From NCBI GenBank assembly GCA_002436105.1, contig DIXU01000008.1, forward strand, positions 145,979 to 209,978: a DNA stretch of 64,000 nucleotides, read 5' to 3'. This DNA comes from Candidatus Aminicenantes bacterium UBA6072. GTDB taxonomy: Bacteria; Acidobacteriota; Aminicenantia; UBA2199. The notes beneath the pieces are model-generated. The model was not told where the DNA came from. It saw nothing but the letters and a program-made list of their open reading frames with translations, and ran no database searches. A program made the position numbers and the translations under genes. Positions 44,200-57,819 of the stretch are shown piece by piece. How positions within the stretch are numbered: the stretch's first letter is position 1; each line of letters begins with the position of its first letter.

Positions 44200-46560
44200 T
44201 CAGTTGTCCAGCCGCTCCAGGAGCAATTTGAGGATGAAGCGCGCCGCGGCCTTGGGATTGCCGCCGGCGCGGATGGCCGGGCCGACGCAGGAGGGGCAGC
44301 CGCCCGGGCAGGGGCAGTTCTCGATGATCTCCAGCGCCTTCTCCAGCAGCAGGTTTCCCTTCTCGTACAGGGTTTCGGAAAATCCGACGCCGCCCGGGTA
44401 CCTGTCGAAGATGAAGACATTGGGCTCGAAGCGGTCGACGAAGGCCATGTCCGCCTGGCCGCGCATCATGCCCTTGAGCGCTCCCGGGTGCAGCGGCTCC
44501 TTGGTCAGGTTGTCCTCGATGGCCACGCCCAGGTCGCGGGTGTCGCACAACAGGATGACCGGGCTGATCTGCCTGACCAGGTAGGCGATGCCGGAGACGG
44601 CCTCGAGCTTCTCCTCGTTGGCGAAATCCAGGCCCTGCAGCACCTCGTTCTTCACTGTCAGCCAGAAGCCGGTGGTGTGCATCTCCTGCTGCGGCAGCTG
44701 CAGCTCGCCGGCGCCGACGTTCTCCATGGTGAAGAACTTCAGCTTCTTGAAGCCCACCACCTGGGAGAAGACGTGGACGTCGCCGCAAGAGAAATTCACG
44801 TTCTTTTTCCGGGTCTCGTCGAAGACATCCAGCACCTTGATCTTGGTGTAGGTGATCGAGTCAGTGAAGTAATCGGCGTTGGAGCGGGTCAGGAAGGCCT
44901 TGCGGTTCTCGTAGTCCAGCTCCTCGACGATGTACTGCTCCCCTTCCAGGATGTAGATGGCCTTGGGATGGAGCGTTTCCAGCGCATCGCTGAAACCGAC
45001 CTCGGCGATCACCCGCTCGCCGTCGCTGCGGTCGACCACGACGAAGTTGTCGGAGGTGACGCGGGTGAGGCTGACGGCGTCGGCCGGGTAGCCCTCCTCG
45101 GTCCAGAACCACTTGCCGTCCTTGGCCAGCAGCACCTGGTGCTCGGCCAGGTAAGAGAGGATCTCTTCCAGGTCCTCGGAGCCGAAGCGGTCCCCCCGGG
45201 CGAAGGGCAGCTCGAAGGCGGCGCACTTGACATGATCGACGAGCAGGGTCAGGTTATCGGCGTTGATGCGCCCCATTTCGGGCGACTGGCCGGAGAAATA
45301 CTCGGGATGGCTGACGATGTACTGGTCGATGGGCATCGAGGAGGCGACCAGCACGCCCAGCGACGGGCCGCCGCGGCGGCCGGCGCGGCCGAGGCGCTGC
45401 CAGGTCGAGGAGATCGATCCCGGGTAGGAGGCCAGCACGGCGGCGTCGAGCGAGCCGATGTCGATGCCCAGTTCCAGGGCGTTGGTGGCGACCACGGCGC
45501 GGATCCTGCCCTGGCGCAGCTCCTTCTCGATCTCGCGCCGCTGCCTGGGCAGGTAGCCGCCGCGGTAGCCGCGCACCGTGTCGCGGTCCTGAACGGTCTT
45601 CTCGAAGTCGTTCTTCAGGTACTTGACCAGGATCTCGGTGATCAGCCTGGAGTTGGCGAAGGTGATCACCTGCAGGCCGTGCCGGAGGAGAATGCCGGCG
45701 ATCTCGCGCGTCATGGAGACGTAGGAGCGGCGGATGCCCAGCTGCTTGTTGACCACCGGCGGGTTGAAGAACACCAGGAACTTCTCGCCGCGCGGCGCGC
45801 CGTTGCGGTCGACCAGCGCCACCTCCTCCTCGATCAGCTTCCCGGCCAGCTCGGCCGGGTTGGCGATGGTGGCCGAGCTCATGATGAACACCGGCTTCGT
45901 GCCGTAGAAGGAGCAGACGCGCTTCAGGCGGCGCATGACGTTGGCCACGTGCGAGCCGAAGACGCCGGTGTAGTAGTGCAGCTCGTCGATGACCACGTAC
46001 TTCAGGTTCTCGAACAGGCCGGCCCACTTGGTGTGGTGCGGCAGGATGCCGGAATGGAGCATGTAGGGATTGGTGATCACGATCTGCGCCTGCTTGCGGA
46101 TGGCCTGGCGCATGCTGGTCGGCGTGTCGCCGTCGTAGGTGTAAAGCCCCAGTGTCTCCCCCAGCGCCTTGTTCAGGTCGAACAGCTCGGCCAGCTGGTC
46201 CTGGGAAAGGGCTTTGGTCGGGAAGAGGTAGAGCGACTTGGCCTGCGGGTCGCGCTGCAGGGCGTCGAGCGCGGCGGCGTTGTAGATCAGCGTCTTGCCC
46301 GAGGCGGTCGGCGTGGCCACCACCGTATGGCGGCCCGCCAGGACGTTGTCCAGCGCCGCGGCCTGGTGGGAAAAGAGGCGCTCGATGCCGCGCTGTTTAT
46401 AGATCTCGACGATCTCGGGCGCCAGCCGCCCGGGAAAATCGGCGAATTCGCCGCTGAAGGGATCGATGCGGATCAGGCGCAGCTCGGTCTCGACGTCGTT
46501 GCGCAGCTGGAACAGGTCCTTCAGCGCCAGCTCGACCCGGGAATTCTTGCCATCGTCCAT
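44200..46560 (-). CDS. DEAD/DEAH-box helicase with C-terminal DUF1998 zinc domain (YprA/MrfA-like)
   Basis: ATPTASGKT, VIDELH, SAT, QRLGRAGRRG motifs. C-terminal CPCPGGCPSC four-Cys cluster. Confidence 0.8.
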   Translation of the reverse strand: MDDGKNSRVELALKDLFQLRNDVETELRLIRIDPFSGEFADFPGRLAPEIVEIYKQRGIERLFSHQAAALDNVLAGRHTVVATPTASGKTLIYNAAALDALQRDPQAKSLYLFPTKALSQDQLAELFDLNKALGETLGLYTYDGDTPTSMRQAIRKQAQIVITNPYMLHSGILPHHTKWAGLFENLKYVVIDELHYYTGVFGSHVANVMRRLKRVCSFYGTKPVFIMSSATIANPAELAGKLIEEEVALVDRNGAPRGEKFLVFFNPPVVNKQLGIRRSYVSMTREIAGILLRHGLQVITFANSRLITEILVKYLKNDFEKTVQDRDTVRGYRGGYLPRQRREIEKELRQGRIRAVVATNALELGIDIGSLDAAVLASYPGSISSTWQRLGRAGRRGGPSLGVLVASSMPIDQYIVSHPEYFSGQSPEMGRINADNLTLLVDHVKCAAFELPFARGDRFGSEDLEEILSYLAEHQVLLAKDGKWFWTEEGYPADAVSLTRVTSDNFVVVDRSDGERVIAEVGFSDALETLHPKAIYILEGEQYIVEELDYENRKAFLTRSNADYFTDSITYTKIKVLDVFDETRKKNVNFSCGDVHVFSQVVGFKKLKFFTMENVGAGELQLPQQEMHTTGFWLTVKNEVLQGLDFANEEKLEAVSGIAYLVRQISPVILLCDTRDLGVAIEDNLTKEPLHPGALKGMMRGQADMAFVDRFEPNVFIFDRYPGGVGFSETLYEKGNLLLEKALEIIENCPCPGGCPSCVGPAIRAGGNPKAAARFILKLLLERLDN

Positions 46561-46608
46561 AGCTGGAAATTAGCATAAAAAGCCGGAATAGTAAAATAAC
46601 GAACTATC

Positions 46609-46864
46609 GTAACGCGTGACGCGTGACGCGTGACGCGAAAGAACCCTGAGGTAATCCTGATCACATCTATCTTTGTTTTCGCTGGTCTGAGTATACTGGC
46701 GAACCCATGCAACGCATGACAAGCAAGCGCCGAGGGGCAATCCCGATCAAGTTCACCGCATTAATTCACTTGGTAGTGGCGTCGCTTTGTTCTTTTATTC
46801 AATGCCCATTTATAAAGATTGATTCCTGTGGTTACATGTCACGCGTTACGCGTTACGCGTCACG
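46609..46864. repeat. inverted arrays of ACGCGTG heptamer repeats flanking an AT-richer core of about 200 bp
   Basis: ACGCGTGACGCGTGACGCGTGACGCG at 46612-46637. Its near-reverse-complement CACGCGTTACGCGTTACGCGTCACG at 46840-46864 overlaps the trx stop. Confidence 0.7.
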
Positions 46865-47240
46865 TAGTCTTCGGTTCTTCCTTCTTGACTCCCAGGATCT
46901 CGGCGATCGCCTTGTCGAAGCCGCGGCGGTCCATGGCGCCGCGGGCCATCTGCGGCGGGCCGGAAACGGGGATGAACAGCAGGCTGGGGATGCTCTGGAT
47001 GCCGAAGGCGCCGGCCAGCTCCTGTTCCTTGTCGGTGTCGACCTTGTAAACGGCCAGCTGGCCGTCATAATCGGCGGAGATCTTCTCCAGGATCGGGGTC
47101 ACCATCTTGCACGGCCCGCACCAGTCGGCGTAAAAGTCGATGATGGCCGGCAGCGTGCCGCGGTATTTCCACTCCTTCTCGTTCTCGTAGTCGAATACCT
47201 TCTCGATGAACGCTTGCTTGTCCAGTTTTTCCATGTTCAT
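46860..47240 (-). CDS. trxA: thioredoxin
   Basis: WCGPC active site. Confidence 0.85.
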   Translation of the reverse strand: MNMEKLDKQAFIEKVFDYENEKEWKYRGTLPAIIDFYADWCGPCKMVTPILEKISADYDGQLAVYKVDTDKEQELAGAFGIQSIPSLLFIPVSGPPQMARGAMDRRGFDKAIAEILGVKKEEPKTT

Positions 47241-47644
47241 GCTCCTTGTTTATTTTTTTGCTTGCGAAAGGCGATGAAGTCGCGGACCACGCCCATGTCG
47301 CAGGCACGGCCCCTCTGGAAGCGGCGGCAGAACAGCTCCAGGTTCTTGCGGTCGGAGGCGAACGGCTTGCCCCCGGGGTGGCTTGCGGCCAGGGCGTTCA
47401 TCACGGCGAGCCCAACGGGCGGCAGCGCCCCGCTGAGGCGATAGAACACATGCTTGCCCTGGCGGCGCGACGCCGCCAGGCCTTCGCGCTCCAGCAGGGC
47501 CATGCTGCGCGATACCAGGGACTGGGACAGCCCGGTGACGGCCATGAGCTGGCAGACGAAGAGCTCCCGGGCCTGCAGCAGCAGCAGCAGGCGCAGGCGG
47601 TTCTCGTCAGCCAGGGTTTTCAGGATGCGGACGTCGCTTATCAC
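47237..47644 (-). CDS. ArsR/SmtB-family transcriptional regulator
   Basis: Winged-HTH (LRLLLLLQ...ELFVCQL) with Cys in a metal-site-like position. 4-nt overlap with trx. Confidence 0.75.
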   Translation of the reverse strand: MISDVRILKTLADENRLRLLLLLQARELFVCQLMAVTGLSQSLVSRSMALLEREGLAASRRQGKHVFYRLSGALPPVGLAVMNALAASHPGGKPFASDRKNLELFCRRFQRGRACDMGVVRDFIAFRKQKNKQGA

Positions 47645-47690
47645 ATCAACATATTAACATTTGTTTTTTTGTTTGTCAACTTTTTTGCCT

Positions 47691-47806
47691 GTAGACGAGT
47701 AGACGGGTTGATGGGTAGAAGGGTTAACGGCACTGGCAACGAGTTCTTGCGAGCGCCTCATCCCTCTGACTCTTCAACCCCTGAACTCTTCTACCCTTCT
47801 ACGTCT
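47691..47806. repeat. inverted arrays of GTAGANGG-like octamer repeats around rluA 3' end
   Basis: gtagacga gtagacgg gttgatgg gtagaagg gttaacgg at 47691-47730, and reverse-complement units (tagaaggg, tagaagag) at 47785-47806. Confidence 0.55.
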
Positions 47807-48684
47807 TCGCCAAGCCCCATGGCTTCCCGCCAGGCAGGGGGGATGAAACGCACGGAAAGCCTGTCCCCGGTCGCGGGATGGGGGAAGACGTACTGGAAGC
47901 AGAGCAGCCAGAGCTCGCCACCGGGGGCGGCGCCGCCGTAGCGCACGTCCCCCAGCAGCGGCGCCACCTGTTCCTGGAAATGGCGGCGGATCTGGTGGGT
48001 GCGACCGCTCTGCGGCAGGACCAGGAAAAAGCAGCGTCCGTTCCGCTCCCGGCAGAAGCGCACGTAGGTCAGCGCGCCGCGCCGCCGCCCCTGCCATTCG
48101 AGCTCCGAGCGGATGACGTACGACGGCCGGACGCCGGGAAATGGGGCGGTGGCGGCCAGGTAGCGCTTGCGCACGCGGCGCTCCTGGAAGAGCCGGTGCA
48201 GCGCGACCTCGGTTCCCTTGTTCTTGGCGAAGACGACCAGCCCCTGGGCCGGCAGGTCCAGGCGGTTGACCGGGGCGGCCCGGTAGCGCAGGCGCCGGCC
48301 GTCATAATACTTCTGCACTCCGTGCAGCAGGTTGTCGATGTCGCTGTAGGGGGTGGGCTGGGCCGCCGCCCCTCCCCTTTTGTAGACGATCAGCAGCTGT
48401 TCGTCCTCGAAGCGGATATCCTCGCGCCTGAGCACGTATTCGCGGATCGGAAATCTGGGCCGGTCGACGCGCAACAGCTGCCCGCTGATCGTCATTCCTC
48501 CATCGCGCAGGCGGATCTTGCGCTCATTGTCCCAGACCGACCCCTGATGCAGCAGCTGCTCCGCCTCTCCGGGATCGACCCGCAAGTGCTTCTGGAGCGC
48601 TTCGGCCAGGATCATGCTCTCCCCTGCCTTGAGGCGGATAAAGAAGCGGTCCATGTTGCGATAGCCGGGAGCAGAGCCTGTCAT
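47791..48684 (-). CDS. RluA-family pseudouridine synthase
   Basis: RLD motif (HRLDLPAQGLVVFAKN). Start set at MTGSAPG, the track ORF extends upstream into the regulatory region. Confidence 0.7.
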   Translation of the reverse strand: MTGSAPGYRNMDRFFIRLKAGESMILAEALQKHLRVDPGEAEQLLHQGSVWDNERKIRLRDGGMTISGQLLRVDRPRFPIREYVLRREDIRFEDEQLLIVYKRGGAAAQPTPYSDIDNLLHGVQKYYDGRRLRYRAAPVNRLDLPAQGLVVFAKNKGTEVALHRLFQERRVRKRYLAATAPFPGVRPSYVIRSELEWQGRRRGALTYVRFCRERNGRCFFLVLPQSGRTHQIRRHFQEQVAPLLGDVRYGGAAPGGELWLLCFQYVFPHPATGDRLSVRFIPPAWREAMGLGEDVEG

Positions 48685-48731
48685 GGCGGAATTGTAGAAC
48701 CCGGGCTTGGGTCTGTCAAACAAAAAATCAA

Positions 48732-48849
48732 AACTCGGTGTACGGTCCACGGTTGACGGCAAGAGAAGAGTTGCGAAATTCATATTGCATCGCCGCAATA
48801 CTTCTTCTTGACCGTACACCGTATACCGTCCACCGTGAACCGAGTTCGG
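48732..48849. repeat. about 118-bp imperfect palindrome built from inverted CGGTNNN / ACCGNNN heptamer arrays
   Basis: Left arm cggtgta cggtcca cggttga. Right arm accgtac accgtat accgtcc accgtga accg. Central ttgcg...cgcaa inner inverted repeat. Confidence 0.65.
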
Positions 48850-48870
48850 AGAGCAGAAAAAACGAATTCC

Positions 48871-48899
48871 TTGACAATCGAGGTCATATAATTTATAAA
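48871..48899 (+). promoter_or_regulatory. sigma70-like promoter TTGACA-17-TATAAA for acs
   Basis: Hexamers at 48871-48876 and 48894-48899. A leader of about 50 nt with GGAGGG RBS before ATG 48953. Confidence 0.5.
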
Positions 48900-48952
48900 A
48901 TCGTTTTGCCGGGAACACGCATCTCAACGCAAATCAATGCCTGGAGGGCTGT

Positions 48953-50656
<1,704 letters not shown>

Positions 50657-51843: not shown

Positions 51844-52512
51844 CTAATCCAGCAGATCCTCGATCCTTCTGGCCGCGGCGAAGAGGTCGGGCTCGACCCA
51901 GTCGGCTTCGGAAAAGTCCTGGCCGCGGGTGTAGTCGTTGGGCACGGCAATGACCCGGCAGCCGGCGGCCTTGCCGGCCAGCACGCCGTTGCGCGCATCC
52001 TCGAGCACGACGCATTTCCCCGGCGCCAGCCCCAGGCGGCCGCAGGCGATGCGGTAGATTTCCGGATCGGGCTTGCCCCGATCCAGGCCGTCGGCCGTCT
52101 GCAGCACGGCGAAATACTTCCGGAGGCGCAGCGTGTCGAGGGCGATATCGAGGAATTCCCGCTGGGCGCCGGTGGCCACGGCCAGCTTGAGGCGGCCGTG
52201 AAAGGCGTTCAGGATCTCGTACAACCCGGGCATGGCGCCCAGGTCACGGCCCATCTTCTCCAGCATCAGCCGGTTGCGCCACTCGAGCAGTTCCTCGGGA
52301 GAGGTCTCGATCCCCAGGATCCCGCGCAGCAGGCGCAGCGACTCGATGGGCTTGCGCCCCATCAGCGGCCAGAGCTGCTCGTCGCGGATCTCCCTGCCGA
52401 AGTGGGCGGCCATCTCGCGCTCGGCGGCGAAATAGAGGCGCTCGGAATCGATCATCAGCCCGTCCATGTCGAAGATCAGGGCCTGCGGGATCAAGTGCGA
52501 TAGCTGCGGCAT
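51844..52512 (-). CDS. HAD-family hydrolase (beta-phosphoglucomutase-like phosphatase)
   Basis: IFDMDGLMIDSE motif I, GKPDPEIY, and a terminal D motif. High GC. Confidence 0.75.
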   Translation of the reverse strand: MPQLSHLIPQALIFDMDGLMIDSERLYFAAEREMAAHFGREIRDEQLWPLMGRKPIESLRLLRGILGIETSPEELLEWRNRLMLEKMGRDLGAMPGLYEILNAFHGRLKLAVATGAQREFLDIALDTLRLRKYFAVLQTADGLDRGKPDPEIYRIACGRLGLAPGKCVVLEDARNGVLAGKAAGCRVIAVPNDYTRGQDFSEADWVEPDLFAAARRIEDLLD

Positions 52513-52770
52513 CCGCCATTATACACGATCTCCTTCCCAGCGCAGCATATCTTGTTGTTTGTCCTTCAAGAAGTGTTTTGAGGTATCCTCATCGAGGAAA
52601 ATCCCGATTACGCCCTGGTGGCCTCGCGCAATTTCCTGCCGGTGCGCATCGAGCGCTCGGTCAATGAGAATCTTTGCAAGGGAAAATTTGCTCCGCTTAC
52701 AAAGGTAGTTTTATCAAAGCCAATAGAGGATGAAAACCGTTTTTAGAATTCATGGTTGACCGGCGGGGAA

Positions 52771-54669
52771 TCAGTCGTTGATCACCTGGATGGCAGGGTA
52801 AATTTTCCAACCTCTGCCTTTGGTAAAAGAAAAATGATTCATCTCGCAATGAGGCAAATTGATGGCATAGCCATTTTGTTGCTTATAGCCTTCATAAATA
52901 TGGATTTCCCGATGGATCGGGAATGAATCTTCGAGGATGGGAAAACCATTCTCGGTCATGGCGGGCAGGCAGGATTGCGAGAAAATGGTGGCTGCAATAT
53001 CTGCGGTTTGCGTTTCCCTCTGGGAAATCGTGAGCTGTGATGCGGAACGATGAGCCGGTTTGATCAGCAATAATGCCTGGCTCCATTTATCCATTTGCCT
53101 GGCATCAAAATCAGGGCGTTTGATCAGGGCATCGATTTCACTCATCGTCTCCGCAGATTCGGGGGTTTTCAGGGAAAACAGATTATCTTCTTTGTATGCG
53201 AAGCCATGGTCGGAATGGATCATTATGGTCGCATTATCGTAACGATCAAGGCGCTTCAACTCGGAAACGAATTGATCGATCAAGTTGAAACAGGCTTGAA
53301 CCTGGTCGTTGCGGGTCGTTCCTTCCGGGTGATAGACGAGTTTGCCGTCCAAAACATATGGATTATGTGGAAGATAAATATGCGCCTCGACATAATGTCC
53401 TTGGTGCCCGCGCAATTCTTCCTCAGCAAGCATTGTCCGAAATATGTTCAAGGCGGTACCGACCCGCAAGTGCGTATTGGAAAAATCGCCTTTCTTGCCA
53501 AAATTTCGGCTCAGTAAGCCCCGACCTTGGTCATAAACCTCTTTTCGTAATGGAACCGGTGCCAGTCTCAGCAGGCAGAGATCTGCGAAATTCAGGCGGT
53601 GCAGAATCTGATTATGCGCATGATGCTGGATTCTGTCAGCAACCGCGAAGGACACCTTTCTGAATGCAGGCTCATTTCTTTTAAAACTCGCATTCCCATA
53701 AAGGGAAGTCAGCCAACCGTTTTCCAGCATTCGTTCGGAAATGGTTGGAATGGCTGCATTCAAAATCCACTCCCGCATATTCCCACCTTTAAAAAATGAG
53801 CCGGTTTTGCAGCATGTCACCGATGGCTGAGTCCATAAATAGTTTGCTCTATTTTTCGGATAAAAAATGAAGTCTTTTAAGGTTCTTTGGTGCTTGCTTT
53901 TTGGATAGCATGTTTGAAATTCTTGTGAACCGAAACTGTCAAAAAGCAGCCGGTAGATGTTGCCGCCGGTAATGGTCGCTTGGGGAATGGGATAAGTGAT
54001 TTTTTTGGTTGGATCGGCATAACCATGGTCTGAATGACTTCCCTTGACATCCAATTTCACCAGCAGCAGGATGAGTATCAAAATGGCTATTGTTCCGCCC
54101 ATCGCTCGCAGCAATTTCCGCGGCAAACGAATGAAAGCGAATAGCAGCAGCAAAAATATCAAGCACTGCAGCAAAGTCGCAGCCACAGGTTCAAGCGGTG
54201 TCCATTTGTCCTCCATCCCGCTCGGGGATGACATGCGCAACGGGAAAAGGATTTGCGACAGGTAGACAAACAGCCCAATGAAAAAGAACAACCGGCTCAG
54301 TCGTGAGCGCCACAATGGAGAAAACGTGAACGAAAGAAATAAAAGAACCCCCATGCTTGCGCCGGCGGCAATCAAAAAGGAGTGCAATACATCGCTGGGG
54401 AATTCATTCAGGTTACCCAGGAACAATTCCACCGGAATGGAAATGAATAAAATGGTGGGCAGGAAGCTGGCCAGTGCCATATCACTGAGCCGGTCAATCA
54501 GCAAACTCTTGTGATTTTTCACAAGCCCCCCCTGTGCCATCCGCCAACATTTTATATAATTTTTTCTTTCCGTCAATATAGTTTCAATTGCCGATGGGGT
54601 GCCGATACTGCATGACAATAAATGGTTCTCTTTCCCCATATTTCCGCAAGTTGGGCTTGAAATTTCCAT
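52771..54669 (-). CDS. membrane-anchored LtaS/EptA/sulfatase-like transferase, low-GC paralog of 29949..31805
   Basis: Multi-TM N-terminus then a sulfatase-fold domain (HSDHGF). True start may be an internal Met (MAQGGL or MALASF). Confidence 0.6.
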   Translation of the reverse strand: MEISSPTCGNMGKENHLLSCSIGTPSAIETILTERKNYIKCWRMAQGGLVKNHKSLLIDRLSDMALASFLPTILFISIPVELFLGNLNEFPSDVLHSFLIAAGASMGVLLFLSFTFSPLWRSRLSRLFFFIGLFVYLSQILFPLRMSSPSGMEDKWTPLEPVAATLLQCLIFLLLLFAFIRLPRKLLRAMGGTIAILILILLLVKLDVKGSHSDHGYADPTKKITYPIPQATITGGNIYRLLFDSFGSQEFQTCYPKSKHQRTLKDFIFYPKNRANYLWTQPSVTCCKTGSFFKGGNMREWILNAAIPTISERMLENGWLTSLYGNASFKRNEPAFRKVSFAVADRIQHHAHNQILHRLNFADLCLLRLAPVPLRKEVYDQGRGLLSRNFGKKGDFSNTHLRVGTALNIFRTMLAEEELRGHQGHYVEAHIYLPHNPYVLDGKLVYHPEGTTRNDQVQACFNLIDQFVSELKRLDRYDNATIMIHSDHGFAYKEDNLFSLKTPESAETMSEIDALIKRPDFDARQMDKWSQALLLIKPAHRSASQLTISQRETQTADIAATIFSQSCLPAMTENGFPILEDSFPIHREIHIYEGYKQQNGYAINLPHCEMNHFSFTKGRGWKIYPAIQVIND

Positions 54670-54747
54670 GCTCCTTCGAGACTGAATCCACGCTGCGCGA
54701 GCATAAGGTTATGGCCGGGCGGCTGTGGCGGGCAATCCCGGCCCAAC

Positions 54748-54950
54748 GAACATGGAGGCGGTCAAGGCTTCATCTCCCTAACGCCCGGCTTCCATGCCTC
54801 CAAGATGCTCGAACTGGACATGATGGACTTTTCCGCCAGACGCTCTTGTCGCTGGCCTTTCTCCGAGAAATCAAATTCATGCCCGGGCTGCCCAAAAACA
54901 CCCGGGCAGGGTCACGGGCCGCGTACGGGTCACCTGATCGTGGGGCAAGT
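54748..54950 (+). pseudogene. degenerate copy of the acs 3' end (frameshifted, premature stop)
   Basis: About 70% nt identity to 50416-50620. Translation PGFHASKMLELDMMDF...PGCPKT versus acs PGFQASKMLELDIMNF...PGLPKT, broken by indels. Confidence 0.7.
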
Positions 54951-55056
54951 AGACCACCGGCATTTACACCCTGGAAAACGGCTGCAGCTCCCGCTATCGC
55001 CCGCCGCATCGGGATCCGCGATCGTTGCGGATCGAGAAATCTTGCCGACCGCTCCC

Positions 55057-57819
55057 CTACTTCTCCGGCGGAACAGCCAGGGAGCGGTAAATTCCGGAAT
55101 CGACGAAAGCACGATGGAAGCTTTCGCCGCTCAGTTCGCGTACCGTCGGCAGCCGGCGCAGGTAATCGTGGGTGCGGAGGATCAGGTCCCGGTCCATCAG
55201 CTTGGCCGCCGCCTCGGGCAGGGATTGAAAATAAAAAGGGTACTCTGCCCCCAGGTATTCCACCACCGACTCCAGGGGATTGATCAGCAGCGGCGTGTAG
55301 CGCACCATGCATTCGACGATGGCATTGCAGGCGGACGAGTCGTACAGGAACATGAAGACGACGTTCCGGCTCAGCAGCCAGTCATATTCCTGGTTGGACA
55401 GGCAGGGGATGGTCACGACGGAGGAGAGATCCACGTGGACGAAAGTGCCCTCGCGGACCAACATCTCCTTTTCTTTGGCCATCAGCGCGGGGAGGCTGGG
55501 ATGGCCGACGTCCAGAAAGACTTTTTTGAAGTCGGTTTTGGGCAGCTGGTGGATCGCGTGCAGCCGCCGCAGCCACCACCCCACCTGGACGATCATTTTA
55601 TCCGCGTTGGCGGCGAACGCCTCCGGGGACCATTTCAAATCGGGCGTCTCGCTGGGCAAGCGCAGCGTCTCCACCGGGATCTTCAGCATCTCCATCAGAT
55701 GCCTCTGGTGATACCGGGAAAAGGCGAAAAGCCCGCGGCACCAGGGCAGGCTTTTCCGCCAGGATTCCGAGGCGAAGATGGCCGGGTTGCTCTGTTCGGG
55801 ATGGAACCACTCGGGCAGGCGCGGCGGGACATGGATGAAGCCGATCCAGGGCGTTTCGTGGCCCTGATTGCCCTGGGGCAGCCAGGAAAAGGTCCTCTCG
55901 ATGAACGCGTCGAGCTCGACGCCCCGGGGATGGTGCAGCCCCAGCAGGAAGCGCAGCCCGTATTTCAATCCGCTGCGATGAAGCCCGAAATCCAGGCGCA
56001 GCTGGTCGGCCAAAGCGATCTTCCTCTCCCCGGCGGGAGGCATGGCGGCCAGGCTGGCGATCTCGCTTTCGGGCAGCCTTCGTTCCGCCTGCCGCGCTTT
56101 CAGGCTTTGCAGGAACTTCTTCCCCATGCGCAACGGCAGCAGCAGGAACCGGCCCAGGCGGAACGAATGGCTGTTCCGGAGGATGGCCACGTTGTTCCGC
56201 AGCAGGGAGATCTCCGCGGTTTTTTCCCTCAGCGCTCCGTTCAACTCCCCGATCGTCCGCTCATTCTCCTGCAGGTCATTCTTCAGCCGCCCGATCGACA
56301 ATTCCCTCTCTGCCAGCACACCCGTCAGTGCTTGGCTTTTCTCGCCTACTCGATCCAACTCGCCGGATAAGTGCGCGATCTCCATTTCCCTTCCCTGCAG
56401 TGCGGCCTTCAAGGCATCGATCTTCCGATTTTTCTCGATCCCGTCACTTTGCAGCCGCCAGAGCGATGCGTTTTCCTCGGTCAGCGTGCCGCTGAGCGTT
56501 TCGATCTTCCGGTCCCTCTCCTTCAGGTCGCCTTGCAGTCGCCCGATCGTCCCTTCCCTTTCGGCCAGCGCGCCCTTCAGCTCCTCGATCTCCCTTCTTC
56601 TCTCCCCCACCTCCGTGGCTCCCCGGGCAAGCGAATCGGAGAATCGCGAAACCTGCTCATTCCTGACCTTCAGCTCCGCGACCAGGCCGTCGATCGTCTC
56701 CACTTTCTTTCGCCAGCCGTCCAGCAACCGGTCCGTCATTCTCTCCGCGAGTCTTATCCAATCGCCATTCCTTCCGTCCTCCAGGATATTCCTGGATCTG
56801 ACCGGCTTCACCGCTTCCGCGGCCCGCAGCCGGGTGGCGATCCCGGCCGGAAGCCGCCTGGCGGCCTCCCGGGAAAGCACATGCGGCTGGTTGCCGGCGA
56901 TCAAGCCCTGCACTTGGTCCTCGATCGCCGCCATGGCCTCCGGCGGCAGGGGAAAGGCCGAATAGCGCGTGATATGGCAGTCGCTGAAATCCAGGGAGCC
57001 GGCTTTTTTACCGCCGAGCCAGCGCTGGACCCCGGCGCGGTAGGCGTGGTCAGCGGACAGGGCATTGATGTCCCAGAGCATGTCCGCATGCGTGGCGTTC
57101 TCGAGCAGTGCCAGCAGCCAAAGGTAATAGAAGATGAAGTACTTCTCTTTTTCTTCGTACGCCTGGCTCAGGACCCGGTAGAACGATTCTTCATCGGCAT
57201 AGTCGGAGGAATCGAATTTCAGCAACGGCAGCGCATCCCATAAGGGGCGGATAAGGTCATGTTCACGGTTTTTGCTCATGGCGATGATATCCATCAGGAA
57301 GAACGCGTCATAGCCTGTCCGCTCGCGAAGGGCCGCGTACGACTGCCATTGATCCCTCGGGTCGCGGTGGAGATAGATGTTCAATGAACGGGGATAGGCG
57401 GCCTTGAACCAGGCGCTGCGCAGCGCCGTGCGGTTGAACTGGAACAGCGGTACGCGGGGGCCGCTGGCCTGGATCAGAAAGTCGATATATTTTTTCTGTT
57501 CGGAATCGGCCTCGCTGCCCGCCTGGCAGAACCAGTCGAAGCTCAGTTCCTTCCTGAAAAAAGGCACGCCGGGGATTCCGGGCCTCAGTAGGGTTTCGTA
57601 TTCGTACAGATAGTGCCGGTCGAGCTCCGGGTGTCCCGCCGCCTTGAAATTGCGGGTCAGGACATCCTGGACGTTGTCCACGGTCACGCCCCCGAGAAGC
57701 TGATGGAACGGCTCGTAATAACAGACGTAGCCCGGAAGCTGGCGGAACTTGTTCCAGACATAGGTGCTGCCGGTGCGGAACAGGGCATGGATGAAAATCG
57801 GGCGCGCTTTCATGTTCAC
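55057..57819 (-). CDS. sulfotransferase-like P-loop domain + repetitive coiled-coil spacer + C-terminal domain (920 aa)
   Basis: N-terminal IFIHALFRTGSTYVW (5'-PSB-like P-loop). Residues about 395-560 form heptad-rich degenerate about 28-aa repeats. RBS-less, possibly leaderless. Confidence 0.6.
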   Translation of the reverse strand: MNMKARPIFIHALFRTGSTYVWNKFRQLPGYVCYYEPFHQLLGGVTVDNVQDVLTRNFKAAGHPELDRHYLYEYETLLRPGIPGVPFFRKELSFDWFCQAGSEADSEQKKYIDFLIQASGPRVPLFQFNRTALRSAWFKAAYPRSLNIYLHRDPRDQWQSYAALRERTGYDAFFLMDIIAMSKNREHDLIRPLWDALPLLKFDSSDYADEESFYRVLSQAYEEKEKYFIFYYLWLLALLENATHADMLWDINALSADHAYRAGVQRWLGGKKAGSLDFSDCHITRYSAFPLPPEAMAAIEDQVQGLIAGNQPHVLSREAARRLPAGIATRLRAAEAVKPVRSRNILEDGRNGDWIRLAERMTDRLLDGWRKKVETIDGLVAELKVRNEQVSRFSDSLARGATEVGERRREIEELKGALAEREGTIGRLQGDLKERDRKIETLSGTLTEENASLWRLQSDGIEKNRKIDALKAALQGREMEIAHLSGELDRVGEKSQALTGVLAERELSIGRLKNDLQENERTIGELNGALREKTAEISLLRNNVAILRNSHSFRLGRFLLLPLRMGKKFLQSLKARQAERRLPESEIASLAAMPPAGERKIALADQLRLDFGLHRSGLKYGLRFLLGLHHPRGVELDAFIERTFSWLPQGNQGHETPWIGFIHVPPRLPEWFHPEQSNPAIFASESWRKSLPWCRGLFAFSRYHQRHLMEMLKIPVETLRLPSETPDLKWSPEAFAANADKMIVQVGWWLRRLHAIHQLPKTDFKKVFLDVGHPSLPALMAKEKEMLVREGTFVHVDLSSVVTIPCLSNQEYDWLLSRNVVFMFLYDSSACNAIVECMVRYTPLLINPLESVVEYLGAEYPFYFQSLPEAAAKLMDRDLILRTHDYLRRLPTVRELSGESFHRAFVDSGIYRSLAVPPEK
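56142..56637. repeat. degenerate tandem coding repeats (about 84 nt unit) specifying the coiled-coil spacer
   Basis: Repeated units visible on the plus strand (…cagccgcccgatcg…ccttcaag/ctgcag…) and as a repeated SxSxxPxSxSI pattern in the shadow frame. Confidence 0.55.

Follow-up and report, generated by a model that had tools for sequence, protein, structure and literature searches.

Convergent pairs of heptamer and octamer repeat arrays in three adjacent intergenic spacers of an uncultured Aminicenantes bacterium

We analysed arrays of short tandem repeats in a stretch of 64,000 nucleotides (hereafter the window) from the Candidatus Aminicenantes bacterium UBA6072 (GenBank assembly GCA_002436105.1, contig DIXU01000008.1, positions 145,979 to 209,978), to which all coordinates refer and to which the analysis of the source genome extended. 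The arrays are located among five genes, encoding a DEAD/MZB helicase (44200-46560), a thioredoxin (trx, 46860-47240), an ArsR/SmtB regulator (arsR, 47237-47644) and an RluA-family pseudouridine synthase (rluA, 47791-48684), all on the minus strand, and an acetate-CoA ligase on the plus strand (acs, 48953-50656; score above the NF003313 cut-off). The three spacers among these genes each house one pair of facing arrays, referred to as locus A (trx-helicase spacer), locus B (rluA-arsR spacer) and locus C (acs-rluA spacer). The window is identical to part of a 333-kb contig from the metagenome of a toluene-degrading methanogenic community. At the level of assembled sequence, the two further assemblies compared, one a JGI contig and one a Logan run, agree with it at 100% and in the same orientation, and no recombinase adjoins the loci; both observations bear on a possible invertible promoter (inverton), for which both orientations of the segment between the arms and a nearby invertase would be expected.

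The left arm of locus A (46608-46635, plus strand) reads CGTAACG, CGTGACG, CGTGACG, CGTGACG and then runs into a degenerate CGAAAGA; its end lies approximately 12 nt away from the -35 box of the minus-strand helicase gene. The right arm (46830-46864, minus strand) reads, on the minus strand, CGTGACG, CGTAACG, CGTAACG, CGTGACA and TGTAACC, and its outermost unit contains the thioredoxin stop codon TGA (46860-46862). The two arms enclose approximately 195 nt of unique sequence (46636-46829). At locus B, the left arm (47691-47730, plus strand) is built from the five octamers GTAGACGA, GTAGACGG, GTTGATGG, GTAGAAGG and GTTAACGG, and the right arm (47755-47802, minus strand) reads, on the minus strand, GTAGAAGG, GTAGAAGA, GTTCAGGG, GTTGAAGA, GTCAGAGG and GATGAGGC, its second unit containing the rluA stop codon TAG (47791-47793). 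Locus C comprises four units in the left arm (48734-48761, plus strand; CTCGGTG, TACGGTC, CACGGTT, GACGGCA) and five in the right arm (48810-48844, minus strand; minus-strand reading CTCGGTT, CACGGTG, GACGGTA, TACGGTG, TACGGTC). The initial annotation had correctly placed the five octamers of the left arm of locus B and recognised the facing heptamer arms of locus C; the right arm of B, which it had located at 47785-47806, and the bounds of the arms of C have been corrected to the positions given here. In a common register the units are CGTRACG (A), GTWRAMGR (B) and NACGGYN (C), with periods of 7, 8 and 7 nt, respectively, and four to six units in each arm. Between the arms lie 24-195 bp, and the pairs are convergent at all three loci, with the G-rich strand pointing inward.

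Self-identity at a lag of 7 nt was 0.96 and 0.75 for the two arms of locus A and 0.72 and 0.70 for those of locus C, and at a lag of 8 nt it was 0.75 and 0.59 for those of locus B. The six arms (0.59-0.96) thus compare with a background of 0.25 +/- 0.08 for the 64-kb window, and each of them lies at or above the maximum of all other windows of equal length in the 64 kb (empirical fraction ≤1e-4). A scan of the window for periods of 7 and 8 (at least four units at a lag identity of at least 72%) returned four arrays, every one of them inside the three loci, as compared with a mean of 0.2 and a maximum of 2 arrays in 100 second-order Markov simulations. Tandem Repeats Finder also detected 46608-46637, 46841-46864 and 48811-48842. 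The tandem periodicity claimed in the initial annotation is therefore significant against both the 64-kb background and the simulations. Complementarity between the inverted arms amounted to 89% over 27 nt (A), 73% over 33 nt (B) and 79% over 28 nt (C), with folding z-scores of -3.2 (A, RNA), -3.6 (B, RNA) and -5.6 (C, DNA); none of 200 shuffled sequences was equally stable. The remaining intergenic spacers of the window contained no such arrays. Rfam yielded no match in the window at the gathering score, and at E ≤1 the region 46500-49000 gave three weak sub-gathering matches (19-26 bits as against cut-offs of 34-70), all in coding sequence and none on an array.

All spacers have conserved promoters of the sigma-70 type at their borders, with starts that are almost leaderless, and in the window the array pairs occupy the gap from the preceding stop codon to the next -35 box. 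The acs promoter (48871-48899, plus strand; TTGACA-N17-TATAAA, -35 box at 48871-48876), which is kept in all relatives examined below, and the rluA promoter (48691-48719, minus strand; TTGACA-N17-TACAAT, followed after 6 nt by the ATG at 48684 and thus near-leaderless) stand back to back and flank locus C, which lies between them; the acs promoter is not part of the locus. The arsR-trx promoter (47651-47679, minus strand; TTGACA-N17-TAATAT) flanks locus B, and the helicase promoter reads TTTACT...TGCTATTTT. Distances from array to -35 box range from 11 to 26 nt: 11-14 nt for helicase, arsR (-35 box at 47679-47674, minus strand; 11 nt from the outer end of the left arm of B) and rluA (-35 box at 48719-48714, minus strand; 14 nt from the outer end of the left arm of C), and 26 nt for acs, measured from the outer end of the right arm of C. 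The distance of 22 nt reported earlier for acs holds from the end coordinate used at that time, and becomes 26 nt when counted from the last unit. For rluA (48684-48719), arsR (47644-47679) and the helicase gene (approximately 46561-46603), the start codon follows the -10 box by approximately 6-12 nt in all relatives, a short distance that points to leaderless or near-leaderless mRNAs in this lineage. A separate conserved palindrome (47645-47668; AACAAATGTTAATATGTTGAT in the window, consensus ACATATGTTAATATG) overlaps the -10 box of the arsR-trx promoter. All 16 relatives have it upstream of arsR, where it probably serves as the operator for ArsR/SmtB; it is unrelated to the arrays.

To compare the same spacers across the lineage, we used 16 loci in GTDB genomes (designated by L numbers) found with the RluA protein, with amino-acid identities of 58-95%. 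Most of these genomes are labelled Candidatus Aminicenantes/Aminicenantia or Acidobacteria(ota), and two metagenome-assembled genomes are titled "uncultured Clostridia bacterium". The gene order acs / rluA-arsR-trx-helicase was kept in 16 of 16, and facing arrays were present at the same three spacers in most of them, with a unit that varies by species. In the trx-helicase spacer the unit is CGTRACG in the window, L003, L009, L010 and L012, AGTGACN in L005, L011 and L018, AGTGATR in L004 and L017, and AGTGAAA in L016; both arms always switch unit together between species. In nine species the acs-rluA spacer carries N-A-[C/A]-G-G-[T/C]-N, and either end bears the conserved terminal unit (C/A)TCGG; in L005, L009, L011, L012 and L015 other families are present or share the spacer (GTTCGAN, AAATTCC, AGTGACN, GACGCGT). 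The octamer family of the rluA-arsR spacer is found in the window, L007, L010, L012 and L015, and as a remnant in L006. In total, at least eight unit types occur across the relatives, and approximately 30 of their array pairs are convergent, the AAATTCC family being the sole exception. A whole-unit insertion or deletion distinguishes L003, with five units, from the window, with four.

Arrays were altered or missing in several relatives. The trx-helicase pair of L008 is collapsed to CGTGACGCGTCACGTGTCACG, which is still palindromic, and the acs-rluA spacer of L009 is chimeric, its left arm deriving from one family and its right arm from another. In L013, L014, L016 and L017 plain G+C-rich palindromes stand in place of arrays; among the palindromes seen at these spacers, one resembling repetitive extragenic palindromic (REP) elements, TAGGGACAGGTCGCGACCTGTCCCTA, is found in the trx-helicase spacer of L013 and L014 and also in the rluA-arsR spacer of L013, and a second, GGGTAGGGAACGCAAATTTGCGTTCCCTAC, in the rluA-arsR spacer of L016 and L017. 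In L007 the acs and rluA promoters are intact and back to back with no array between them. The suggestion that locus C is a dedicated element of the acs promoter was therefore not borne out, the pair lying between two divergent promoters that are both intact without it in L007. The rluA-arsR spacer of L003-L006 (L003:1070-1330, L004:5460-5760, L005:1880-2120, L006:900-1130) contains a G+C-rich palindromic element of approximately 230 nt that resembles a miniature inverted-repeat transposable element (MITE), occurs in either orientation and replaces or adjoins the octamer arrays; in L006 it adjoins the surviving right arm. Its position in this spacer, beside a surviving arm in L006, suggests that the arrays are insertion targets, as for insertion sequence (IS) elements in Geobacter. 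A loosely similar G+C-rich insert of approximately 300 nt lies between acs and rluA in L017 and L018.

The comparison of repeat positions separated conserved from variable features of the arrays. Mismatches within units accumulate at fixed positions, namely 4 and 7 in A, 3, 6 and 8 in B, and 1 and 7 in C (chi-square p = 0.03, 0.02 and 0.004, respectively), leaving invariant and partly dyad-like cores of 3-5 nt: GTRA (A), GT..A.G (B) and A.GG (C). Among orthologous arms of the acs-rluA spacer from five species, positions 4-5 (GG) showed no differences, position 2 differed in 8% and positions 1, 3, 6 and 7 in 36-60% of comparisons, figures to be read with the proviso that the pattern used to find the arrays partly constrained positions 3-6. 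In the trx-helicase spacer every species retains the GTRA core, and the other three positions vary (CGTGACG, AGTGACN, AGTGATR, AGTGAAA). Arm-versus-arm identity was 0.68 in the best register and 0.59 when slipped by one unit, so that the "inverted repeat" reflects a shared unit consensus rather than a position-by-position palindrome. The centres are species-specific and unalignable among relatives; at locus A the centre is kept only in the 95%-identical relative L003, and at the same site in other relatives it ranges from approximately 25 to approximately 195 nt. BLAST of the three centres and of the full elements against 136 loci returned only L003 and one 29-nt match to an arm of B, so that they are not copies of a MITE. 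Nor, as a general feature, does a palindrome continue through the centre: 17 of 22 elements fold as a single hairpin, yet shuffling the centres gives nearly as many cross pairs (238 observed, 198 in shuffled centres), the excess being significant only in L009 and L010. The difference between sense and antisense folding energy had no consistent sign in the trx-helicase or the rluA-arsR spacer and thus gave no signal at the RNA level, and the arm-to-arm distance showed neither helical nor unit phasing (p ~0.17). What is kept is therefore the core, the period, the unit count and the polarity, and what is free is the spacer positions, the centre and the exact mirror register.

An exact-pattern scan of metagenome contigs for three CGTRACG units revealed at least 120 loci, as compared with a chance expectation that we roughly estimate at a few matches; none of them overlapped the genes of the window. 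Gene calls at these loci were heuristic, and the counts of gene contexts accordingly rest on crude calls. Among the matches listed, to which the following counts refer, contigs bearing the arrays ranged from 30 to 75% G+C, and 186 arrays comprised three units in 62 cases, four in 113, five in 9 and more than five in 2. Paired arrays were convergent in 21 cases and divergent in 2 (18:2 in another count). Arrays that overlapped the stop codon of a long open reading frame (ORF), or lay no more than 30 nt from it, had GTRAC in the sense of the gene in 71 cases and antisense in 9, and the gene contexts were tandem, convergent and divergent in 85, 35 and 30 cases, respectively. The modules are flanked by ATC on the outer and GCG on the inner side. 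Neighbouring genes are ordinary ones (S20, NusG-like, MutS2, carboxyltransferase), and Pfam scans of contig L053, which is dense in arrays (nine largest ORFs), and of seven other contigs (10 genes between or beside arrays) identified housekeeping or otherwise ordinary functions. Outside these contigs, a 12-unit GTGACSC array begins at a stop codon on a Streptomyces plasmid, and a short array is present on a Burkholderia replicon. A literature search with the exact CGTGACG array sequence returned nothing relevant. The view of the initial annotation that the three loci share one architecture and form a recurrent extragenic family is thus upheld by the same spacers in most of the 16 relatives and by at least 120 metagenome loci with a CGTRACG array; it is in the relatives that the class recurs, the 64-kb window itself holding no further arrays.

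Together, these data indicate that the three loci are very probably Aminicenantes members of a described class of extragenic heptanucleotide repeats without settled function, in the form of convergent pairs of 7/8-bp tandem arrays with four to six units per arm, which are inherited in fixed spacers that separate transcription units, resized by slippage of whole units and dispensable in some relatives. The closest counterparts are the intergenic heptamers GGGAATC of Xanthomonas and GGGGAYT of Nostoc described by Rehm et al. 2015 (PMC4692102), which prefer four units and whose role is open. [quoted passage not shown] The present loci share the units of approximately 7 nt with about four per array, the convergent pairing, the overlap with stop codons and the orthologous spacers with variation. 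They differ in belonging to the Acidobacteriota/Aminicenantes, in the presence of several unrelated unit families side by side where Xanthomonas has one, in having one locus with 8-nt units and two of three units that are incapable of forming a G-quadruplex, and in the position of one locus between divergent promoters, a context that is under-represented in Xanthomonas.

A second counterpart is provided by Geobacter metallireducens, where Aklujkar et al. 2009 (PMC2700814) described three classes of putative sites for global regulators or integration host factor, consisting of 3-5 tandem repeats of 7-9 nt (GTTGCTYN x4, TCTCCGTS[Y] x3, MTYCTGA x5). These form pairs on opposite strands at variable distance in intergenic regions, with several classes per genome and a putative function (PMC2700814), and in these respects resemble the arrays described here. 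Their unit sequences are different, and each class has 8-24 pairs per genome, a number to be set against the 64 kb covered here. The Geobacter sites are also targets of ISGme8/9, which insert at a fixed distance (PMC2700814); here, a MITE-like element occupies the locus B spacer of L003-L006. The heptamers of the cyanobacterial STRR sequences (short repetitive sequences repeated in tandem; Mazel 1990, as cited in PMC4679880 and PMC2670836) form hairpins, one of them between hupS and hupL, and their function is open (PMC2670836). STRR sequences likewise consist of 7-nt intergenic tandem units with several families per genome, their inverted arrays can form hairpins, and slippage is accepted as their generator. 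In contrast, STRR and TAACTGA arrays reach 26-43 copies and are mostly unpaired, and the arms described here have four to six units and are almost always paired and convergent. Heptanucleotides are the commonest long simple repeats in prokaryotes, and their excess has been reviewed by MacGregor 2015 (PMC4679880), who cites Mrazek 2007 as ascribing the heptamer bias to polymerase slippage.

As to mechanism, we tentatively favour a binding platform, in which an oligomerising DNA-binding factor would occupy each arm as a series of equivalent sites at the boundary of a transcription unit. This proposal starts from periodicity, cores, unit count, polarity, position and vertical inheritance as observed, from which we infer protein binding and a role for the resulting complex. 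Given an invariant core of 3-5 nt in each unit, an arm can be read as a row of four to six equivalent contiguous sites. A sequence-specific factor that oligomerises might coat such a row cooperatively, with one subunit or dimer per 7-8 bp, and two facing rows would then assemble a symmetric nucleoprotein block, located between one gene's end and the -35 box of the promoter that follows, acting as a boundary or insulator rather than as a gene-specific operator. Ribbon-helix-helix proteins could serve as precedent: omega/ParB of pSM19035 binds WATCACW heptads, with one ribbon-helix-helix dimer per 7-bp heptad and a requirement for at least four contiguous heptads (PMC9499535). The omega/ParB sites are the only contiguous heptad arrays understood by experiment; their units are contiguous and 7 bp long, and direct and inverted arrangements both occur. 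With 4-5 contiguous heptads per arm, loci A and C reach the number of units that omega needs. The AGTGATA units of two relatives (L017:7736-7789, L004:6564-6607) are the reverse complement of WATCACW, a resemblance at chance level. MetJ, another ribbon-helix-helix protein, binds arrays of 8-bp metboxes. The octamers of locus B (47691-47802) contain TAGA and AGACG, which we take to be an Arc box and half a MetJ metbox, respectively, and this resemblance is likewise at chance level. A binding platform ranks first among the explanations considered, if only as a possibility, as it fits invariant cores that recur at a fixed spacing, a unit count confined to a narrow range, strict polarity, the use of one module across the range of G+C contents, the lack of a mirror register and the lack of an RNA-strand signal. 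The limitation to 3-5 units in most CGTRACG arrays is moreover unlike a free microsatellite.

Several observations weigh against a binding platform. No binding protein was recognised among the genes scanned, and the adjacent ArsR regulator has a probable operator of its own, the separate palindrome described above. Ten small ORFs of the window, which has 13 predicted genes of less than 160 amino acids, were scanned and none belonged to a DNA-binding family, four of them being without any Pfam match; the ArsR regulator and thioredoxin, both below 160 amino acids, were scanned separately. The omega sites overlap the promoters of their own operons on a plasmid, with the protein gene adjacent, whereas the arrays are chromosomal, lie 11-26 nt upstream of -35 boxes, and occur in all intergenic contexts, with no ribbon-helix-helix domain encoded by the genes beside them or by the 10 small ORFs. 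The distribution over gene contexts (85/35/30 among the matches listed) speaks against a classical promoter operator. With three unrelated units in 2.3 kb, and at least eight across the clade, several binders or one very tolerant binder would be required, and since CGTRACG, GTWRAMGR and NACGGYN are unrelated, the idea of a single DNA-binding protein for all three loci, put forward in the initial annotation, is unsupported. Arrays are missing, collapsed or chimeric in L007, L008, L009, L013 and L014, in several of which other palindromes are found, and array loss or replacement by palindromes is at least as compatible with a structural or positional role. The arm-to-arm distance lacks the helical phasing mentioned above, and a register-tolerant hairpin with the cores as its paired segments would also account for their conservation.

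That last possibility leads to an explanation by structure alone, which ranks directly behind the binding platform and is only slightly less probable. Here, slippage would build an imperfect, register-tolerant palindrome that forms a stem-loop in read-through RNA or cruciform-prone DNA, and sequence would matter through pairing only; protection of 3' ends, pausing or termination, or translational coupling at the stop codon would be its roles in RNA, with REP/BIME elements and STRR hairpins as models. All three loci fold far beyond their shuffled versions (z -3.2 to -5.6), the arrays of A and B start at or within the upstream stop codon, and no canonical terminator was scored in the region. Relatives without arrays (L013, L014, L016, L017) have other palindromes at the same spots, the collapsed array of L008 is still a palindrome, and the concerted change of units in both arms is what a pairing constraint predicts. 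Indifference to unit sequence would explain the many families, the whole-unit difference between the window and L003 agrees with slippage, and the literature documents both slippage (PMC4679880) and STRR hairpins between hupS and hupL (PMC2670836). Set against this, the mirror register is barely better than a slip of one unit (0.68 versus 0.59), the centres are palindromic no more than by chance, and the sense strand has no folding advantage. At locus C the flanking promoters are divergent and no transcript there would need a hairpin at its 3' end, and the hairpin of B is followed in rluA sense by an A-tract instead of a U-tract, U-rich tails occurring only after A (trx sense) and C (minus strand). 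Nor does pairing predict the inward polarity of 21:2, the mode of four units or the use of one module at 30-75% G+C among the matches listed. The loci do not qualify as canonical intrinsic terminators, which have a compact G+C-rich stem-loop with a U-tract directly after it; a scan of 46400-49100 found no terminator-like site, although it cannot score stems with loops of more than 8 nt, and canonical terminators do occur elsewhere in the genome. Binding and structure are not exclusive models. REP elements, for example, are hairpins and protein-binding sites at once.

Less probable is that the arrays are a neutral or selfish by-product, heptamer microsatellites that nucleate in harmless spots, are duplicated as inverted copies by template switching and persist without function. 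The arrays are dispensable in several relatives, their unit number differs among close relatives, heptanucleotides form the most frequent class of long simple repeats in prokaryotes (PMC4679880), and among the matches listed arrays occur in all intergenic contexts roughly in proportion to these contexts; the 12-unit array at the stop codon on the Streptomyces plasmid would fit this view as well. A by-product is hard to square, however, with the persistence of arrays at orthologous spacers of genomes in which RluA is only 58-77% identical and the rest of the spacer is unalignable, or with invariant core positions beside saturated variable ones. The narrow distribution of unit counts among the matches listed and the strict polarity are equally unexpected under neutrality.

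Ends or remnants of mobile elements (MITE, REPIN or transposon), with the units as subterminal transposase-binding sites, are very unlikely. Such an origin would agree with the defined polarity, with conserved terminal motifs that flank the repeats (GAACTCGG on either end of C-type pairs, ATC before and GCG after CGTRACG modules), with the same unit at different spacers (AGTGACN in the trx-helicase spacer of L005, L011 and L018 and in the acs-rluA spacer of L015), and with the insertion of Geobacter IS elements at a fixed distance from analogous paired sites (PMC2700814). The centres are unique, though, which leaves no copies of whole elements, and the arrays hold orthologous positions across the clade and drift in unit while in place. 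Target-site duplications are not evident, and the 10 representative genes between or beside arrays on seven contigs are ordinary cellular genes without a transposase or recombinase among them. The arrays do resemble REP, BIME and REPIN elements in being extragenic, palindromic overall, often located at gene 3' ends, arranged as polar inverted doublets and sometimes used as insertion targets. A REP element, in contrast, is a single imperfect palindrome of 20-40 nt present in hundreds of near-identical RAYT-mobilised copies, whereas the present elements are tandem 7-8-nt arrays; no further copies were found in the 64 kb, the centres are unique, and the genes scanned beside arrays gave no match to a RAYT (Y1 transposase), no genome-wide search for RAYTs having been made. 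The description "REP-like" in the initial annotation is hence fair as a functional analogy, and the accompanying comparison with iterons is not supported. Iterons are direct repeats of approximately 17-22 bp beside a rep gene or origin features. Here, units are 7-8 bp long, no replication gene or origin lies nearby, and the neighbours are chromosomal housekeeping genes.

G-quadruplex repeats, the reading put forward for the heptamers of Xanthomonas and Nostoc, of which the former, with the same architecture, form G-quadruplexes in vitro (PMC4692102), have the least in their favour and fail the direct test as transposon ends do: the left arm of locus B has GGG every 8 nt (GGGTTGATGGGTAGAAGGGTTAACGG), but it amounts to three GGG and one GG instead of four tracts of three, the unit of A has no GG and that of C only GG, and the CGTRACG arrays among the matches listed keep the same architecture, four-unit preference and polarity.

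Other candidates were examined and set aside. A three-frame stop-codon cassette holds for GTRAC, GTAGA and GGCGTAA and fails for NACGGYN, GTTCGAN, GGAATTT and the Xanthomonas GGGAATC, and is therefore not a general feature. A sigma-54 promoter in the conserved centre of B was discarded for misfit of the spacing, and a polar motif of the Chi or KOPS type because several unrelated units cannot all be one motif.

An excess of intergenic heptanucleotides in bacteria has been recognised since about 1990-2007 without an accepted function. New here are the convergent-pair architecture in an uncultured lineage of phylum level and the presence of several unit families side by side. The preference for four units, the inward polarity and the adjacency to stop codons in units that do not form G-quadruplexes remove the sole structural explanation proposed to date, and the comparison of one syntenic region in 17 genomes, by separating kept from free features, narrows the candidate mechanisms. 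As a speculative extension of the binding platform, an uncharacterised family of small, oligomerising, dyad-symmetric DNA-binding proteins resembling ribbon-helix-helix proteins might read the arrays through a "heptad code", each subunit or dimer covering 7-8 bp in rows of four to six, with two such rows head to head at transcription-unit boundaries, GTRAC then being a binding site shared across phyla. If true, this would explain the long-noted heptanucleotide excess. For annotation, the arrays should be recognised as the source of stop codons for adjacent genes and kept apart from iterons, CRISPR-like arrays and transposon ends.

Two regions deserve separate mention. The metagenome contig L053 (L053:1-7600; Ga0181533_1005811, 46% G+C) covers a housekeeping region with S20, NusG-like, GTPase and MutS2 genes in which several GTCAC-type families of 7 and 8 nt pack almost all spacers, including octamer arrays of 14 units (GTCACTCT/GTTACTTT) and a 39-nt module, composed of four CGTCACG units and GATTTTTACCCG, that is repeated four times in tandem. 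In the window, a segment at approximately 52500-55100 has a G+C content of 47-52%, as compared with 62% overall, and long runs without ORFs of high GC3; the large proteins adjoining it are without a Pfam match, and the segment may be a foreign island.

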